A DNA stretch of 64,000 bases from IMG/VR virus record IMGVR_UViG_3300020048_000110. One strand, 5' to 3'. The stretch's first letter is position 1, and each line of letters begins with the position of its first letter. Both the position numbers and the translations under genes were made by a program. Positions 54,068-64,000 of this stretch are shown piece after piece. This stretch comes from a virus. The notes under the pieces are model-generated. The model saw nothing but the letters and a program-made list of their open reading frames with translations. It did not search any database and was not told where the DNA came from.

Positions 54068-54598
54068 CTATAATTTATTTAATTGTATTACTTTTTTTAA
54101 TAATGTACTATATTGTGGGCCTGTAGCATAAGTTTGATCTAAATAAGAAAAGTACTGTTCTCTAGAAAGTTTAGATAGGTACTGTGCTTCATATAAGGCT
54201 CTGTCAGCCACACAATCCTTCCAGCTATCATAATAGGCATGATTTAAATTTGAGCCCTGTGCAGTGGTTATTCTGACCATTGCTTGTTTCATACCAAACA
54301 TATTGTGGTTTTGCTTAAAAACAGGAGATTTAAAATAACCGCTCTCTACAAAAGCCTGAGCCATTACAATATCTGGATATTTAAAAGAGTACTTTTGTAC
54401 CTCTACTAATAGTTTATCTCTAGAGAACTCTTCGTTTGTTTTTAGAGTAACCTCCGCTTCTGCTCTTACTACTATAACCTCTTTAAATACAAAAGAGCTA
54501 AGTGTAATTACCAATACTAATAGAAATGACATCATCCCGATGTATTTCCAAATGTTAACTTTTTCATAAGCTAACAAATCTTTGTTAAATCTATACAT
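54068..54598 (-). CDS. Peptidoglycan hydrolase (glucosaminidase / FlgJ-like domain) with an N-terminal TM anchor. Candidate signal-anchor-release endolysin
   Basis: MAQAFVESGYFKSPVFKQNHNMFGMK matches the glucosaminidase family AQAALESGWG.S...NNLFGIK. It is preceded by the hydrophobic KYIGMMSFLLVLVITLSSFVF. Confidence 0.7.
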   Translation of the reverse strand: MYRFNKDLLAYEKVNIWKYIGMMSFLLVLVITLSSFVFKEVIVVRAEAEVTLKTNEEFSRDKLLVEVQKYSFKYPDIVMAQAFVESGYFKSPVFKQNHNMFGMKQAMVRITTAQGSNLNHAYYDSWKDCVADRALYEAQYLSKLSREQYFSYLDQTYATGPQYSTLLKKVIQLNKL

Positions 54599-57793: not shown

Positions 57794-58105
57794 TTATTTT
57801 TGCAAATTGGTTAAATCTTTTATTAATAATTTAACCTCTTGTATTTTCATTAAAATACCTTCAATACTTTCGACATCTTCTATTTCTAAAGACAAAAACT
57901 TGTTAAGACACTGCTCTACAGTACTATAGTAGTAAATATCTTTAACAACATAATCTACTATTTTACCTGTTTTAACTTTGTCTACGACCTCTTCTTTCTG
58001 TTTTGTATGTACTGCTACTAAAGAGCAACCGTCTCTCGATGTATTTATCGAGTAATTTTCATTAATTTTTATCATGGTTTTTGTTTTTAATTTGTAGTTG
58101 GCCAA
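57794..58105 (-). CDS. Hypothetical protein, 103 aa
   Basis: ORF. Confidence 0.45.
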   Translation of the reverse strand: MANYKLKTKTMIKINENYSINTSRDGCSLVAVHTKQKEEVVDKVKTGKIVDYVVKDIYYYSTVEQCLNKFLSLEIEDVESIEGILMKIQEVKLLIKDLTNLQK

Positions 58106-58143
58106 ATCTACACTTTTTATACATCATTTGGCTGATGTTATTG

Positions 58144-58215
58144 TGGTCCCGGAGGATTACGATACCCCGACCTTGTTCTTATGAGGAACCTGCTCTTCCG
58201 CTGAGCTACGAGACC
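58144..58215 (-). tRNA. tRNA-Met (CAU)-like, 72 nt, with a degenerate T-arm
   Basis: The - strand reads GGTCTCG-TA-GCTCAGCGGAAGAGC-A-GGTTC-CTCATAA-GAACA-AGGTC-GGGGTATCGTAATCCTC-CGGGACC-A. The acceptor stem has 7 pairs including one G-U. The D-arm is perfect. The anticodon is CAU. The T-stem has a closing T-T in place of G53-C61. Confidence 0.45.
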
Positions 58216-58527
58216 AAAGTAGGGAGATTTCGCTCTCCCTAGGCGTGGTTAAGCTGCAATCCTTTGCACCCCACCAATGTTAAAAACGTTGCCGTTTGTG
58301 TTTAAAGTATATTCTCCTTATTACCTACTTATTGCCAGTCAAAACCAGTCACCCCCATAAAAGATTGTTTAAAGTACAACCAGTAAAACTTATAAGGTCA
58401 ACTGATAAATCAGTAGACTCCACCAGACTGTTTCTTAATTCAAGCATACAGACAAACAAACGTGGAGGTGCCGAGAGTCGAACTCGGGTGTTGGTCAACT
58501 TCAATAATATATCAACGAACTACTTCG

Positions 58528-58675
58528 TAATCAGGACAGGACTCGAACCTGTAAATAAGAGAGGTCACTTAACACTAATGGGACTCATACCATTACCCTC
58601 TGTATTGCCATACCGTGTTGCGTCTACCACGAGCAGGGACACCCCACTCCTTTCGCCACCTGATTATTTACTTGT
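58528..58675 (-). ncRNA. Oversized tRNA-like element E1, about 148 nt, homologous to E2
   Basis: 5' AATCAGG pairs with 3' CCTGATT. It has the GGTGGCG...GTGGTAGACGC D-arm with an inserted hairpin GGGGTGTCCC. At the 3' end, ACAGG-TTCGAGT-CCTGT forms a T-arm. Confidence 0.4.
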
Positions 58676-59007
58676 CTTTCCAAGTTGTCAATCCGTTTTA
58701 ATCTCTCGGTGGACCTCCCATCAACCTACATACAGATTACAGTTGTAGATATTTTATCTATAATCCTCTGTCTTTCCAGTGTCCACAACTTATGTGTTAG
58801 CCTCACACATCAATCACTAGGTTGTCAGCTTTGCAACCAAGACAGGATTTGAACCTGCAACCCTTTCTGCCTTTCGACAAAATGTTATACCTCTTTAACT
58901 TACTTGATCTCCAGGTACTCTATAAGCTACTACCCTTGGAGCTACGAATCGTATCATTGAATCTATTCTAGACTAGAGACAACAACATCTTATAGAGTTT
59001 TATTTCG

Positions 59008-59123
59008 TGATTGAGACAGGACTCGAACCTGTAATTCATACTGTTAACTATATGGTGTGTTTATACTTCACACTCTGCTTTTACCCTCTTCGGGTGTGTG
59101 TCTAGCCGTTTCACCACTCAATC
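59008..59123 (-). ncRNA. Oversized tRNA-like element E4, about 116 nt
   Basis: Acceptor GATTGAG / CTCAATC (7 bp). D-arm TG-GTG-AAACGGCTAGA-CAC. A 66-nt insert with hairpins ACCCGAAGAGGGT and GTGTGAAGTATAAACACAC. T-arm ACAGG-TTCGAGT-CCTGT. Confidence 0.4.
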
Positions 59124-59217
59124 ATTTCCCCTCGGGTGAGGGCACTCGTCAGTTTCGGTAGCATCCCCTAGACTACTCTAATTAAATCAAAGTAGATGGG
59201 GTCGAACTGTAAATACC

Positions 59218-59499
59218 TTACAAAGGTTTTTTAGAACCTATTTCATATTCACTTGGAGTATTGATCAACTTCAATAAGATGTATATATACTCTGCTTCAC
59301 TATAATCCATTCTATTTTTCTCTGCAAATTTAGTTAGAAGACTTAAACCGTTACCGTCATCCTCTATTTGAAATGCGATCCTATCTCTTATATGACTTGA
59401 CCAACTACTATCATTAGAAAAGTACAGTGTGTGTTTAGTATCATCTACTATTTCATAGTCAAAATCATATCTACCATCTACAAAAATCTGCTGTTTCAT
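59218..59499 (-). CDS. Hypothetical protein inside the tRNA-like cluster. Start set at the internal Met, because the ORF track N-terminus overlaps element E2
   Basis: MKQQIFVDGRYDFDYEIV... The longer ORF would run into the tRNA-like gene. Confidence 0.4.
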   Translation of the reverse strand: MKQQIFVDGRYDFDYEIVDDTKHTLYFSNDSSWSSHIRDRIAFQIEDDGNGLSLLTKFAEKNRMDYSEAEYIYILLKLINTPSEYEIGSKKPL

Positions 59500-59519
59500 T
59501 TTTATCTGTTTTAAATTTG

Positions 59520-59668
59520 TTGTCAGGACAGGATTCGAACCTGCAATTGTGGATTTCCAAGTAAGGACTCGTATGGGCTTTTTCCATTCCACACCCACGA
59601 TGAAACTATCCTTATCTTTTTGCGTCTACCACGTCAGGGAGAAACCCCTAACCTTCCGCCACCTGACT
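59520..59668 (-). ncRNA. Oversized tRNA-like element E2, about 149 nt
   Basis: AGTCAGGTGGCGG-AAGGTTAGGGGTTTCTCCCTGACGTGGTAGA-CGC ... GCAGG-TTCGAAT-CCTGT-CCTGACA. The D-loop carries a GGGG..CCC hairpin as in E1. It is alignable with E1 over its full length. Confidence 0.4.
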
Positions 59669-59675
59669 GTAAAAT

Positions 59676-59894
59676 TTACTTTTTAAAAGAAAACTTTTGC
59701 CCTAAAATCTCCAATCTTTGACCTAAAACTTGCAAATACTCATTCATCAATCTTGATTGTTTGTAAAGTAAATCTTTGTTTTGACGGTCTAAATCAACAA
59801 ATGCTTGAGTACGCATAAAATCGTTTAAGGCATTTGTCTTTATTGCTAATTCCTGTGCTTCAATAAGAAGTCTTTCGTAAAATGATTCTCCCAT
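59676..59894 (-). CDS. Small hypothetical protein, 72 aa, between tRNA-like genes
   Basis: ORF. Confidence 0.4.
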   Translation of the reverse strand: MGESFYERLLIEAQELAIKTNALNDFMRTQAFVDLDRQNKDLLYKQSRLMNEYLQVLGQRLEILGQKFSFKK

Positions 59895-59915
59895 TTTTAT
59901 TTAATTTAAAGTTAG

Positions 59916-60002
59916 TAGTCAGAACAGGATTTGAACCTGTATTGTTGAATTACCCAGCTTCAACTGCATAAGTATAGCGTCTACCAATTCCGCCACCTGA
60001 CT
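59916..60002 (-). tRNA. Class-II-type (Leu-like D-arm) tRNA or tRNA-like gene, 87 nt. I could not fold a canonical anticodon arm
   Basis: AGTCAGG-TG-GCGGAATTGGTAGACGC matches the bacterial tRNA-Leu D-arm, which I recall as GGUGGCGGAAUUGGUAGACGC (not checked here). It has a GTTGAA/TTCAAC hairpin with a 9-nt loop, T-arm ACAGG-TTCAAAT-CCTGT and acceptor 3' strand TCTGACT-A. Confidence 0.5.
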
Positions 60003-60009
60003 ATTTTTC

Positions 60010-60550
60010 GCTAATGTTAAAAACTGATTCAATCCTCCTAAAACACATTAACTTGGTACTTACTCTATATAGGCTCCCCAATCCTTTATATATCTTTACC
60101 TGAAACTTCTTTGGGTTGTTGATTGACCACTCCCACTTACTCAAGTAGTTTTTATTTAGCACCCTTTCTTATAGCTTACCGAGTTATCAGTTACGGAGCT
60201 TGTATAAGAGTAGGGTCACGTAGCTATACTAAATGTAAGGGTCTCTTACTAACTACTTGCTGAGAACTCATTTGTGTTAGTCTTTACTAGTTGTCGCAAC
60301 AACCTTGTAGCCACTCTATTTTCCTTTCTCAAGGGAACAACACATCTACCATTACTGATAGTATCTTTATGTAAAGTAGTCGCTCGAGGGCCTTTACTCC
60401 TATGGAGACTCAAGTGTTATTTTTAAGTTACCGACTTTTTACAAAGGATCAATGTTTAGCCTTTTATTAAAGCATTCTAGCTACATTGGGAGAACTGCCT
60501 TTCCCACGTTATTTAAGAGTATATCTTGCAGCGTATCTCACTAGGTTATG
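60010..60550. ncRNA. Candidate structured non-coding RNA: 540 nt with no ORF over 30 aa on either strand, and more GC-rich than its surroundings
   Basis: No ORF in six frames. It lies next to the tRNA-like cluster and is flanked by - strand genes. Confidence 0.25.
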
Positions 60551-60552
60551 CT

Positions 60553-61356
60553 TTATTTTACATTCTTTACAAACGGTAAACTACTTCCGGCAAATGTTGT
60601 TGGTAATACACCATTCCATTTGTTGATTGCTTTTTCTTGCATAATCTCTGCTGTTAAACCTCTTGAACGGATAACCAACTGTTCGGTTTTTAGTAACTCT
60701 AATTCATTCTTCTTACGTTGCTCTGAAATCTGTTGATCAAGTACTGAGATATTAGTATTTACTTCATTCCTACTATCAATCTTAGCTTTTACTTTGCTAG
60801 AAAAATCTAAATTCAAACTGAAACTCACTAATTCTAAACCAGCTTTATCAAATTCTTTCTTAACAATATCTTGAACATATTGTTCAAATTTTAAACTGCC
60901 ACCATTAACCATTAATTGGTCAGTAGTATAACCTCTTGAAGCTTCTTTAATAATATCATAAATTCTAGGCTCTAGTACGTTATCTTGTAGTGCAGTCATA
61001 AAATCTGATCCTGATCCTAACCTTGCGTTTTGGAATACTACATCTACTACTCTATTTTCCATTACTTTAAAAGAATAAATAGGTTTTGATGTGAATGCGG
61101 TATTATCTGCCGCTTTGATCTGCAAAACTCTGTCTGTACCCTCATCAGTAGTAAACTGCCCTCTTTGTTCCCAGGCCGGTACTTGAAATAACTCTGTGCC
61201 CGGTGGGAAGGTGCTAACCTTACCTTGTTGTTTGGTGTAATCAGATTTACCATTTTTACCATAATCTTCCATTAATACACCATAATAATTTGGTGCCACT
61301 CTCTCACAAGAAGTTAGTAATACAACTCCTAAAACCAATAATGCTAATTTTTTCAT
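60553..61356 (-). CDS. SPFH (band-7 / prohibitin-like) domain lipoprotein
   Basis: Signal plus lipobox LLTSC. The central region is consistent with the SPFH fold and has a C-terminal coiled coil (EQRKKNELELLKTEQL). Confidence 0.45.
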   Translation of the reverse strand: MKKLALLVLGVVLLTSCERVAPNYYGVLMEDYGKNGKSDYTKQQGKVSTFPPGTELFQVPAWEQRGQFTTDEGTDRVLQIKAADNTAFTSKPIYSFKVMENRVVDVVFQNARLGSGSDFMTALQDNVLEPRIYDIIKEASRGYTTDQLMVNGGSLKFEQYVQDIVKKEFDKAGLELVSFSLNLDFSSKVKAKIDSRNEVNTNISVLDQQISEQRKKNELELLKTEQLVIRSRGLTAEIMQEKAINKWNGVLPTTFAGSSLPFVKNVK

Positions 61357-61360
61357 TCTT

Positions 61361-61518
61361 CTATTTTTTTGTTTTAAATATTAATTTTGCTGAGATATAT
61401 AATCCTAACACAAAAACACCAATCCCAACCCAAGCGTTTATGTGGTTAAAAGTCCAAACTGTAATGTACAAGTAAATAGGTACTGATACGATCCTTAAAA
61501 AAAATCTCTCTATATTCA
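61361..61518 (-). CDS. Small two-TM membrane protein of 52 aa, not in the ORF track, immediately upstream of the SPFH gene. NfeD-like partner by position
   Basis: MNIERFFLRIVSVPIYLYITVWTFNHINAWVGIGVFVLGLYISAKLIFKTKK. Its stop lies 4 nt before the SPFH ATG. Confidence 0.35.
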
Positions 61519-61788
61519 TATTGTTTATTTATTAAAAAATCACACAATCCATCAAGATTGGTACACTTCCACTCTATCTTGTTACGCAGTTTTAGATACT
61601 GTTTTACTCAAAGTTGCTTCATATAATACTCAACAAACATAACACTTCTTGATAGTGTTTAGAATCGTCACATTATAGGCAAATGCTATAATAGGGCGTG
61701 ATTAAATCAATTTTAATTCTATTGTTTATTTTTCTACTGTGTGATTTATTTCTGCAAAGATATAATATTTATTTTAATCCTGCAAGTC

Positions 61789-62484
61789 TTATCCAAAAAA
61801 CTTTTTATAAACTTTATAATACTCCTCGATATTTTTTGCGGTCTTATCGAAAGACTTTAAGAAAGTTTCTGCTCTTTTCTTTGAGTAAGGTGTTGGAATG
61901 TATTCAATCTCTCCCGTTAATCGAAGCGGATACTTTTCTTGACCGTTCCCTTTTCTATCAAGTAGGATCACTCCAGAGTAAGCAATATGCTCTCCCTCTA
62001 ATTCTCTTTGATAAGCATACAACGTTGTTTGTTGATACTCCGGACCTCCATAAAAATCTTTTTTAGACTTTATAGCACCGGTTTTTAAATCATCAATAAC
62101 AAGATTTCCTTCGGCATCTAAATACTCCCTATCTATAAATCCTTGGATAACATAAGAACCTCTGTCAACTACGATCTCAACCTCATACAGGCTATTTGCA
62201 GGCCTGCCTATACGTTTAATAACATCTGTATCAAACTCAGAAAGATCTGAGCCATCCGTGTCTGTTTCAAACAATTTACCACACTTACCTCCAAAGTCTG
62301 TGAAGATATTACCTTCACCTCTTATTCCTAAGAAATAGTTAGCAAAGAACTCTCCTTTATATGCGTCTTCGTTAAACGAATTGTAGGCAGAGTAACTCAA
62401 TTTAGGTTTTCCTACGTGTTGTGGGTATTTGCCACCCTCATTCTCATAGACTTTTGGTAAGTCTAACATTTTTACTTCTGCCAT
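61789..62484 (-). CDS. PD-(D/E)XK nuclease of the RecB / lambda-exonuclease / Cas4-like family
   Basis: EVEIVVDRGSY... VIDDLKTG (hhDhK motif) ... EYQQTTLYAYQ (QxxxY motif). Confidence 0.5.
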   Translation of the reverse strand: MAEVKMLDLPKVYENEGGKYPQHVGKPKLSYSAYNSFNEDAYKGEFFANYFLGIRGEGNIFTDFGGKCGKLFETDTDGSDLSEFDTDVIKRIGRPANSLYEVEIVVDRGSYVIQGFIDREYLDAEGNLVIDDLKTGAIKSKKDFYGGPEYQQTTLYAYQRELEGEHIAYSGVILLDRKGNGQEKYPLRLTGEIEYIPTPYSKKRAETFLKSFDKTAKNIEEYYKVYKKFFG

Positions 62485-63554
62485 TATAGTGTATTTAAAA
62501 TTTCAATAATTTCTCCTCTTTTAGTCGCTTGTAACTCAGGTTTGTCTGACTTGAACATCTCCTGATTAATATAAAGATTGATCAAAATGTCTTCTAAAAT
62601 AGTCTTGTCCTTTTTAGTAGGTTTTTTCTTTTTTAAGATTACACTTAACTCTTCTTTAGTTTCATCGGTCATCTCAGTAGCATTTAAGATCTTATGTAAG
62701 ATTGGTAGTTTTCCAAACAATACATCCTCAGGCTCTCTAGTGTCTACTTTCTCTTCTTTTTTGATATTTGGTTTAGGTGCAGTTGGTTTTAAAGATACCT
62801 TTTCCTCTTCTTTCTTAGCTTCTTTTACTTCTACCGCTTCATCAAACCCAAATACTTTTTCTCCCTTAATCCTACGAATCACATTGAATGTAGCAATAGT
62901 ATCTAAAGTACAATACTTTGCAATTCTTTCTACTTCTCCTCGGTAATAGGCAGATCCTACTTCATCTCCAACTAAATCTACTTTACTAATAGGTATTGCC
63001 AATGCAGTACACAATGCTTGTAAAGAACTTCCGGAACCAGATCCTCCCATCTTCCAGATGTCTTGATTAGTACAAAGGTTTCTACTTTCCCATGGCTTTA
63101 AGTGAGCTGTATCTAACAATGTAGGTATTGTTAAACTGTTAATAATATACCTTTTGCATAAGAAAGGGAAATCAAAATACTTTGAAGCATGACCTACTAA
63201 TCTATAATTCTTACCCTCTACTCCTTCTGAGATCCTTTGTAAAAAAGCACCTAAGTCTTTAAGAAGAGTTGTTTCATCCTCTCCATAAAATTCTTTATAC
63301 TTAATCTTATCTTCGCCTACCATGAACACAAGACTAACCGCACATACTTTACTAAACTCTGCATACAATGATGCTGTCTTTTCCCAAGAATCAGATAACT
63401 CTTCAAAGAACGGTACTTCTCCTGATTGTTTATTTTTATACTCCCAAGCAGATTTCCATTCCGGAGATAAGTTCTCATACTTTTCTACAATTCTAACTGT
63501 TTCAATGTCAATCGCTACAAAGTGTTTTGTAGGAATGTCTCTTAATAATTTCAT
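62484..63554 (-). CDS. DEDDh 3'-5' exonuclease (DnaQ / RNase T-like) with a Lys/Glu-rich C-terminal extension
   Basis: Exo I AIDIETVR, Exo II LVGHASKYFDFPFL, Exo III YCTLDTIATF. Confidence 0.6.
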   Translation of the reverse strand: MKLLRDIPTKHFVAIDIETVRIVEKYENLSPEWKSAWEYKNKQSGEVPFFEELSDSWEKTASLYAEFSKVCAVSLVFMVGEDKIKYKEFYGEDETTLLKDLGAFLQRISEGVEGKNYRLVGHASKYFDFPFLCKRYIINSLTIPTLLDTAHLKPWESRNLCTNQDIWKMGGSGSGSSLQALCTALAIPISKVDLVGDEVGSAYYRGEVERIAKYCTLDTIATFNVIRRIKGEKVFGFDEAVEVKEAKKEEEKVSLKPTAPKPNIKKEEKVDTREPEDVLFGKLPILHKILNATEMTDETKEELSVILKKKKPTKKDKTILEDILINLYINQEMFKSDKPELQATKRGEIIEILNTL

Positions 63555-63570
63555 AGTTTTATATTTGTTT

Positions 63571-63891
63571 TTAAATTACTTCCCAAAGTGTTGCTGGTGT
63601 GCAATGTGCTTTAACGTTCTTTACGTTTTTAAATCCTTTTCTTTTAATTACTCCGGCTTTTGATGCCTTTACTACAATTCCTCCCCATGCTCTAGTGCTA
63701 GGAGGTACAGGTACAGTGCCTTGAGATGCTTCTCTAAGATCTTCTACCATAAACTCTTTATGGTTTTTAATGTAATGTAGTAAAAAGTTGTAAGCTTGGT
63801 CTGACCAACCATTTACTTCTACATTTGCGTGTTCAACCGCTTTTTTAATTCCTAGCTTCATTAGAAGACTACCTGTAATTTTTTTAAACAT
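63571..63891 (-). CDS. Hypothetical protein, 106 aa
   Basis: ORF. Confidence 0.4.
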   Translation of the reverse strand: MFKKITGSLLMKLGIKKAVEHANVEVNGWSDQAYNFLLHYIKNHKEFMVEDLREASQGTVPVPPSTRAWGGIVVKASKAGVIKRKGFKNVKNVKAHCTPATLWEVI

Positions 63892-64000
63892 ATCTAATTA
63901 TTTTAATTTTGACAAATGTACAATCTTTATTTTACTTATGCAAGCTTTTTATTAGAAATTATAATCGTAATGGTAAATAGGGTTGTTTGACATTATGAAA

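Follow-up and report, generated by a model that had tools for sequence, protein, structure and literature searches.

An SPFH-domain lipoprotein gene and its small upstream membrane-hairpin gene in a phage genome fragment

The SPFH proteins, which include prohibitin, stomatin, flotillin, and HflK/C, are universal membrane organizers, and structures of their cages have been solved recently. To our knowledge, all solved SPFH proteins form rings or domes. HflK/C builds a cage around FtsH on the periplasmic side of the inner membrane, and QmcA faces the cytoplasm. QmcA belongs to the SPFH-NfeD operons, in which two genes encode an SPFH scaffold and a small membrane partner; archaeal stomatin-NfeD and Bacillus subtilis flotillin-NfeD operons also exist. 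Phages are known to make small inner-membrane proteins or lipoproteins that block later infection, such as T4 Imm, TP-J34 Ltp, T5 Llp, and phi80 Cor. Here we analyze a stretch of virus DNA of 64,000 nucleotides (IMG/VR record IMGVR_UViG_3300020048_000110; the whole stretch is called the window), which encodes on its minus strand an SPFH-domain lipoprotein of 267 amino acids and, directly upstream, a membrane hairpin of 52 amino acids.

SPFH genes have been noticed in phages before. They were listed in T4-like phages in 2006 (PMC1524935) and in Vi01-like phages in 2011, and a 2026 paper states that the reason why phages carry an SPFH gene "remains unclear" (PMC13239085). In the Kayvirus paper it was speculated that MbpS might help Sec export of Tgl, and MbpV was likened to holins. 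Outer-membrane vesicles of Pasteurella multocida are reported to contain PM0222, an SPFH protein from a prophage island (PMC9872710). When the literature was searched for functional work on phage SPFH proteins, genome notes and speculation were all that turned up. The useful result of the present analysis is not the SPFH gene but its near-constant pairing with a tiny, often unannotated hairpin gene that is not NfeD. This result is concrete and widespread, though unsurprising to a specialist.

Pairing of the SPFH gene with a small hairpin gene

Its conservation indicates that the small open reading frame (ORF) upstream of the SPFH gene is a real gene, inherited together with the SPFH gene. Its TAG stop codon is separated from the ATG of the SPFH gene by 4 nt (aaga), and its 52-amino-acid translation, MNIERFFLRIVSVPIYLYITVWTFNHINAWVGIGVFVLGLYISAKLIFKTKK, contains two hydrophobic segments. 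AlphaFold2 (AF2) predicts helices at residues 3-26 and 29-47, with a predicted local distance difference test score (pLDDT) of 92.2. An ORF of 49-69 amino acids lies directly upstream of the SPFH gene at all 29 IMG/VR loci of one scan and at 72-77 of the 80 loci of a second scan. At the scanned loci the SPFH proteins are 42-87% identical to the query, and the intergenic gap ranges from -26 to +33 nt. The exceptions among the 80 loci are contig ends, variant motifs, and cases where the script took the wrong candidate ORF (locus L069 does have the ORF). The upstream ORFs at viral loci have two hydrophobic segments and a basic C-terminus, and the turn has the consensus W-x-[FY]-N-H-[IV]-N-[AP]-W-x-G-I, in which N25 and H26 are invariant. 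The pairwise ratio of nonsynonymous to synonymous substitution rates (dN/dS) of the hairpin gene is 0.18-0.68 in ten comparable pairs.

The hairpin family is large, and its members are short. It comprises 162 clusters in a 90% database, and a search of 1.84 billion proteins at E<=1e-3 gave 431 representatives. Of these 431 relatives, the best 150 are 44-127 amino acids long; the longer ones have N-terminal extensions resulting from alternative start calls, and none of the 150 has room for a C-terminal domain. The 52-amino-acid protein has no match in Pfam (E<=1) or PHROG. The original prediction had described a two-transmembrane (two-TM) ORF located 4 nt upstream of the SPFH gene, and this description stands except for the end coordinate, which was given as 61518 and should be 61519, one base farther. 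Calling the ORF unannotated was fair, because the gene is uncalled on contigs that carry an identical SPFH protein. The conservation of the ORF, which had been left to be checked, is plain from both scans.

The pairing extends to distant phages and to some bacterial genomes. A small membrane ORF is found just upstream of the SPFH gene in all twelve of the distant phage lineages that were opened (Table 1). In bacterial genomes 62 loci were matched, mostly in Bacteroidota, and 51 of them have such an upstream ORF. The partners fall into three types. The first is found in Bacteroidales and Sphingobacteria and has the NH turn, the second is found in Flavobacteria and Cytophagia and has F-R-S-x-x-P followed by FPY-K-F-F, and the third is enterobacterial and has L-V-P-x-L-I-S-x-K-D. 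Profiles of the Bacteroidales and Flavobacteria types align over their full length with an hhalign probability of 87%. The enterobacterial hairpin type has no detectable similarity to either of the other two (hhalign probability of 0.3-2.6%). Overall these sequence comparisons show that hundreds of phages keep the two genes as neighbors, which either overlap or are separated by 4 nt.

The phage Lbo-JY46 has Leptolyngbya as its recorded host. Its partner protein has the F-R-S-x-x-P motif of the Flavobacteria type, and its SPFH protein is most similar to those of Cellulophaga phages.

The SPFH lipoprotein and its family

The modeled SPFH protein shows a complete SPFH architecture, in which a membrane anchor is followed by the SPFH domain, a single long helix, and a short tail that is conserved. 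The ORF translation begins with MKKLALLVLGVVLLTSC and continues with ERVAPNYYG. The signal peptide combines a basic n-region and a hydrophobic core with the lipobox LLTSC (L-T-S-C, with Cys17), so that the lipoprotein assignment made in the original prediction is borne out. The lipobox Cys is invariant in both SPFH family alignments, and a lipobox-like motif is present at 78 of 80 related viral loci. The SPFH domain follows the lipidated Cys with no linker, and its start, CERVAPNYxG, is invariant in the family alignment. The N-terminal anchor directly before the SPFH domain is a lipid and not a TM helix.

The fold assignment comes from domain profiles and from structure prediction. Residues 20-215 match Band_7 (PF01145) with 43.7 bits against a gathering score of 23.6 (E=4.2e-11), and residues 4-263 match positions 87-357 of the 379 in the profile of PHROG 200, a family annotated "lipoprotein" (E=9.2e-29, 101.7 bits). 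A phmmer search of PDB gave chance matches alone (E of about 0.9), and a fold search was therefore needed. The AF2 model, built with 51 homologues, has a mean pLDDT of 79.6 and consists of a signal helix, an alpha/beta domain (17-185), a long helix (187-231), and a short C-terminal helix. Foldseek returned 59 PDB matches at E<=1e-3, the named SPFH matches having E values from 1e-9 to 1e-6. The top matches are the human prohibitin complex, E. coli HflK/C (alone and with FtsH), stomatin, erlin, flotillin, and QmcA-YbbJ (8z5g), and each of these alignments spans about 240-275 columns. The viral structure library returned many Band 7 proteins of phages and giant viruses. The SPFH fold proposed earlier is thus upheld by a Band_7 score above the gathering score and by the agreement of AF2 and Foldseek. 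The coiled coil proposed with it is present as a long helix, but the model has one single helix at 187-231, and this modeled helix is equivalent to the wall helix of SPFH cages. In the tail, G233, T235, and P252 are invariant from the window's protein to N4 gp20, and W247 is also invariant in a second alignment (A2).

More specific assignments were not obtained. Neither the SPFH protein nor the hairpin has a match in NCBIfam, where the HflK and HflC models give none at E<=1, and neither is matched at E<=1 by the defense-system hidden Markov models of PADLOC-DB v2. The lack of a PDB match by sequence and of an HflK/HflC match indicates that the protein is a member of the superfamily and not an orthologue of a named bacterial SPFH protein. 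Two weak PHROG matches of the SPFH protein were dismissed, one to an endolysin (E=0.016) and one to Cor (E=0.13), which covers the signal peptide alone (residues 1-23).

By its PHROG match the SPFH protein is a further member of an already catalogued phage family. PHROG 200 includes gp20 of Escherichia phage N4, Kayvirus MbpS, the "HflC" of LoVEphage, gp165 of Cellulophaga phage phi4:1, and the lipoproteins of SSU5-like phages and PVP-SE1. Its members have the same length (about 260-296 amino acids) and architecture as the window's protein, with a lipobox in those of Gram-negative hosts, and their phages have a small membrane ORF upstream of the SPFH gene. A difference is that the partner in the window carries a Bacteroidota-specific turn motif, [FY]NH[IV]N[AP]W. 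A tblastn search at E<=1e-5 found full-length homologues in 106 cultured-phage records, and at E<=1e-3 the number rose to 329 of 50,697. Staphylococcus phages make up 141 of the 329 records (Kayvirus MbpS where annotated), and the others include N4-like (gp20), SSU5-like, PVP-SE1-like, Burkholderia, and Stx2a-converting phages, P88, phi4:1, and LoVEphage. The family motif was found on 543 IMG/VR contigs, and the protein database holds more than 2000 relatives. Identity is about 60% to LoVEphage and 23-32% outside the Bacteroidota phages. Given PHROG 200, the cultured-phage records, and the IMG/VR contigs, the earlier statement that SPFH proteins are uncommon in phages is misleading.

Table 1. 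Features of the pair in the window and small ORFs upstream of the SPFH gene in twelve distant phage lineages
Sequence	Feature	Position	Strand	Remarks
Window	SPFH-domain lipoprotein coding sequence	60553..61356	-	267 amino acids + stop; ORF list, Pfam Band_7, PHROG 200, AF2/Foldseek
Window	Signal peptide and lipobox, residues 1-17	61306..61356	-	MKKLALLVLGVVLLTSC; predicted lipid-attachment site Cys17; read from sequence
Window	SPFH alpha/beta domain, residues ~18-185	60802..61305	-	AF2, block pLDDT mostly 79-95
Window	Single long helix, residues 187-231	60664..60798	-	AF2; full-length Foldseek alignments to cage-forming SPFH proteins
Window	C-terminal region, residues 232-267	60556..60663	-	G-LT ... 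KW-G-LP; pLDDT low in monomer model
Window	Two-helix membrane hairpin coding sequence	61361..61519	-	52 amino acids + stop; ORF list, conservation, dN/dS, AF2
Window	Turn motif F24-N25-H26-I27-N28-A29-W30 between helices	61430..61450	-	Alignments; turn at residues 27-28 in AF2 model
N4	gp19, 68 amino acids			Overlaps gp20
P88	Upstream ORF, 67 amino acids			4-nt overlap
Stx2_95	Upstream ORF, 62 amino acids	L120:1759-1947		Unannotated in deposited record
PVP-SE1	gp115, 67 amino acids			One gene between gp115 and SPFH gene
Cellulophaga phi4:1	gp164, 56 amino acids			Upstream of gp165
Kayvirus MSA6	MbpV, 102 amino acids			One TM segment; upstream of MbpS
Burkholderia vB_RY5	Upstream ORF, 49 amino acids	L184:1004-1153		Unannotated in deposited record
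Stenotrophomonas Paxi	Upstream ORF, annotated 58 amino acids			70 amino acids from upstream GTG
Cyrano	Upstream ORF, 66 amino acids			
Leptolyngbya Lbo-JY46	Upstream ORF, 60 amino acids	L187:978-1160		Unannotated in deposited record
Salmonella 7t3	Upstream ORF, annotated 61 amino acids			74 amino acids from upstream ATG
Klebsiella P12620-1	Upstream ORF, 64 amino acids	L189:953-1147		Unannotated in deposited record

Possible roles of the pair

The lipobox, together with the +2 residue in several proteobacterial homologues, points to a periplasm-facing assembly on the inner membrane. A protein with a lipobox is exported and lipidated, so the SPFH domain should lie outside the cytoplasm, and because this domain begins right after Cys17, it has to rest flat against whichever membrane the lipid is anchored in. 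The termini of the hairpin are basic, and by the positive-inside rule its conserved turn should therefore be in the periplasm. The topologies of the two proteins thus lead one to expect both at the periplasmic leaflet of the inner membrane. Asp is found at position +2 after the lipidated Cys in six homologues from enterobacterial phages or plasmids (P88, Stx2_95, Cyrano, 7t3, P12620-1, and the Yersinia/Kluyvera loci) and likewise in the homologue of Burkholderia vB_RY5. In E. coli, Asp at +2 is an established inner-membrane retention signal of lipoproteins.

A possible mechanism follows the known SPFH assemblies. The lipid-anchored SPFH domain would sit on the periplasmic face of the inner membrane, the lipid replacing the TM helix of HflK/C, and by analogy the lipoprotein may oligomerize into a ring or dome. 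Because the solved SPFH proteins are rings or domes, a cage around the membrane patch that holds the hairpin is the natural model; the assembly would enclose this patch, and the periplasmic turn would contact the SPFH protein. The cassette would be made before lysis and alter the inner membrane of the infected cell, a timing that is supposed because the genes lie in a DNA-metabolism block and not in a lysis cassette. Its most likely purpose would then be to keep out the DNA of phages that arrive later, possibly through sequestration of a factor needed for entry at the inner membrane.

This arrangement shares with HflK/HflC-FtsH the SPFH fold with a long wall helix and, as we infer for the phage protein, a periplasm-facing SPFH domain on the inner membrane. 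However, HflK/C has an N-terminal TM helix where the phage protein has a lipid anchor, it is encoded by a K/C gene pair and not by a single gene, and its partner is FtsH and not a 52-amino-acid hairpin. The combination of an SPFH protein and a mini-hairpin that is not NfeD, with its predicted periplasmic lipid-anchored topology, is a variant of the SPFH-partner theme, and no description of it was found in the searchable literature. It offers a minimal two-protein system in tractable phages (N4, the P2-like P88, and Kayvirus) and in abundant gut Bacteroides phages (LoVEphage relatives), and it draws attention to a family of small genes that are regularly overlooked in gene calling.

It is possible, though short of probable, that the pair serves in superinfection exclusion or a related change of the envelope before lysis. 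Superinfection exclusion and membrane remodeling had been put forward in the original prediction, and both are reasonable guesses. Gene placement, in our guess, favors such a role. The cassette lies amid DNA-metabolism genes in the window, in phi4:1, and in LoVEphage. In N4 the pair neighbors the RNA polymerase genes, early in the genome, and adjoins a gene annotated as superinfection exclusion, and the SPFH gene of the Vi01-like phage PhiSH19 likewise adjoins an annotated exclusion gene. In the temperate phages P88 and Stx2_95 the pair is in an accessory or early region near integrase or replication genes. Placement near genes annotated as exclusion in N4 and PhiSH19 also suits a comparison with Imm, Ltp, Llp, and Cor, but these proteins are not known to have an SPFH domain and have no sequence or fold relation to the window's cassette.

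Several points weigh against this role. Literature searches found no experiment on any member of the family. The inner-membrane sorting rule was established for Enterobacteria and not for Bacteroidota, and Asp is absent from position +2 in N4 (Tyr), PVP-SE1 (Glu), and the window's protein (Glu). The exclusion labels of the neighboring genes are depositor annotation. The Kayvirus pair is flanked by the endolysin gene lysK and by tgl, a position that would instead suggest lysis or secretion. Because the enterobacterial hairpins show no detectable similarity to the others, a common origin of the pairing is unproven, and position and architecture alone are shared. A bolder proposal, which we consider doubtful, is that the SPFH lipoprotein and the mini-hairpin form a distinct, ancient phage module building a closed, periplasm-facing inner-membrane cage, and that this nanodomain would seal the membrane against DNA injection or shield it from depolarizing abortive-infection effectors. 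The pair occurs in phages of Bacteroidota and Proteobacteria and in one whose record gives a cyanobacterium as host, and Firmicutes phages have a variant with one TM segment. We know of no SPFH protein that has so far been assigned a sealing or shielding role.

Other roles have been considered for the pair. It could control membrane integrity or lysis timing, the hairpin being class II holin-like or membrane-active and the SPFH scaffold corralling or stabilizing the hairpin or the energized membrane against premature lysis or depolarization. This is unlikely. The hairpin does resemble small two-TM holins in its two TM segments, N-in/C-in topology, and basic C-terminus, and Kayvirus mbpV-mbpS, whose MbpV was compared with holins by the authors, are directly downstream of lysK and upstream of tgl. 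Bacterial SPFH proteins also take part in membrane-stress responses, according to two reports (PMC8581546; bioRxiv 10.64898/2026.02.06.704340). However, in the window some 6 kb separate the pair, amid DNA-metabolism genes, from the sole endolysin-like gene. A like placement holds in phi4:1, LoVEphage, P88, and Stx2_95, and the N4 pair is next to the RNA polymerase genes, early in the genome. With its conserved polar turn and moderate purifying selection, the 52-amino-acid hairpin is not specifically holin-like; the two-TM hairpin architecture fits a class II holin, the gene does not adjoin the endolysin-like gene, and PHROG gives no holin match. A two-component spanin, which pairs a small lipoprotein of the outer membrane with an inner-membrane protein having one TM segment and a periplasmic coiled coil, was rejected, since the large protein with the helix is here the lipoprotein and the membrane partner has no periplasmic domain, and since homologous pairs occur in the Gram-positive Kayvirus system, where there is no outer membrane. 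It is quite improbable that the lipoprotein mimics HflK/C, either around FtsH or another membrane protease or inside host HflK/C complexes, to change the turnover of host or phage proteins. Its topology equals that inferred for HflK/C, the Foldseek matches include FtsH-HflK/C complexes (7wi3, 7vhq, 9cz2), and several depositors have given relatives the names HflC, "regulator of protease activity", or "serine protease". Identity to the HflK/C chains is only 9-15%, however, and NCBIfam gives no HflK/HflC match at the threshold stated above. Prohibitin, stomatin, and erlin match equally well, so there is nothing specific to HflK/C; in addition, the dedicated hairpin partner is left unexplained, and the "protease" names are inherited annotations.

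The remaining two readings have very little in their favor. The original prediction likened the pair to the bacterial NfeD-SPFH operon arrangement, and capture of such an operon, with the small ORF as a short NfeD, would account for a two-gene unit of small membrane protein and SPFH protein, a feature not peculiar to NfeD. QmcA-YbbJ is among the fold matches, and in one JGI record (P0260) a relative bears NfeD's COG title. The comparison can stand as a loose analogy, but as homology it is refuted by the sequence comparisons, and the capture is very improbable. The hairpin has no PF01957 match at E<=1, its profile gives an hhalign probability of 0.3% against E. coli YbbJ, its 52 amino acids are fully used by the two helices and leave no room for an OB-fold, and the best 150 of its 431 relatives lack a C-terminal extension. 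The gene order is also reversed, the E. coli NfeD gene ybbJ being downstream of qmcA and the window's hairpin gene upstream of its SPFH gene. The SPFH protein is a lipoprotein predicted to lie on the opposite side of the membrane from QmcA, and just 62 bacterial genome loci were matched, mostly in Bacteroidota. The likeness to SPFH-NfeD operons is, on this evidence, one of logic, a scaffold with a small membrane partner, and not of descent. Equally hard to credit is the SPFH protein as a virion component, which was rejected on the logic of export. The GenBank note on phi4:1 gp165 opens with "part of structural", and a preparation of a Vi01-like phage yielded three peptides from the SPFH lipoprotein (PMC10892097). 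However, the signal peptide and lipobox lead to export and lipidation, yet capsids are assembled in the cytoplasm, and the peptides were counted far less often than those of true structural proteins. Contamination by membrane vesicles is a simpler explanation.

Surroundings of the pair and the probable host

The gene content of the window is that of a phage, as had been predicted, and this phage is large. Its products include PHROG virion structural proteins, DNA polymerase, DnaB-like helicase, thymidylate synthase, ribonucleotide reductase, and an endolysin-like protein, and close relatives are found on IMG/VR viral contigs of up to about 130 kb. The minus-strand block around the pair encodes a PolB-type 3'-5' exonuclease, a PD-(D/E)XK nuclease, tRNAs, a crAss001_48-related protein, both ribonucleotide reductase subunits, and the endolysin-like protein. 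Farther along this strand are thymidylate synthase, DnaB-like helicase, deoxynucleoside monophosphate kinase, and DNA polymerase, and the plus strand encodes very large virion structural proteins. Megablast of window positions 58000-64000 against cultured phages gave no match.

The host is very probably a member of the Bacteroidota, because the nearest relatives come from phages of Bacteroides and Phocaeicola and from genomes of Bacteroidota, and because a two-box promoter pattern is enriched. This Bacteroidota pattern, TTTG-N17-23-TAnnTTTG, occurs 14 times in the window against 4.8 expected, and none of 100 shuffles reaches 14. Sigma-70-type sites in the window are not above the shuffled expectation. 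The two-box pattern is absent from the sequence immediately before the pair, and the search for a minus-strand terminator past the SPFH gene found none. Between the PD-(D/E)XK nuclease gene and the hairpin gene there are 269 nt without a convincing ORF (61520-61788), and in them a lone TATCTTTG at 61755-61762 (minus strand) matches the Bacteroidota -7 promoter box and is a candidate promoter. In phi4:1 the equivalent interval holds two tiny annotated genes.

The tRNA cluster of the window has several unusual features. Rfam identifies four tRNAs on the minus strand of 58144-60002 (58144-58215, 58834-58909, 59008-59123, and 59916-60002), and ARAGORN identifies two. Two of the tRNAs are unusually long (116 and 87 nt), suggesting insertions or introns. 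ARAGORN reads 59915-60002 as a tRNA-His with the odd anticodon ATG, and LoVEphage has a two-piece "tRNA-His" just downstream of its SPFH gene. Within the cluster, positions 58249-58520 (minus strand) give a near-threshold match to the permuted transfer-messenger RNA (tmRNA) model RF04321 over its full length (1-213 of 213; 44.8 bits against a gathering score of 47, E=8e-7), and this may be a phage-encoded tmRNA-like gene.

Other genes of the window resemble known phage families. The endolysin-like protein (54068-54598, minus strand) matches PHROG endolysin families, and its relative at locus L005 matches Pfam Glucosaminidase. The gene has no obvious holin gene adjoining it in the window. Its product has a hydrophobic N-terminal segment, IWKYIGMMSFLLVLVITLSSFVF, and for this reason may be membrane-anchored or carry a signal-anchor-release sequence. 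A 72-amino-acid ORF at 59676-59894 (minus strand) matches PF21825 (E=2.4e-15), "crAss001_48-related protein", or "Sequestin" in the precomputed annotation, which ties the phage to gene families of crAss-like phages. On the plus strand, nine consecutive ORFs cover 37 kb (96-37272) and encode proteins of 1609, 1352, 850, 601, 899, 2060, 991, 2014, and 1915 amino acids. Six of them were scanned, those of 1609, 1352, 850, 601, 899, and 991 amino acids. Virion structural proteins of PHROG are matched by three of the six; of the others, one begins with a transglycosylase-like region, another contains helicase-like regions, and the last gave no informative match.

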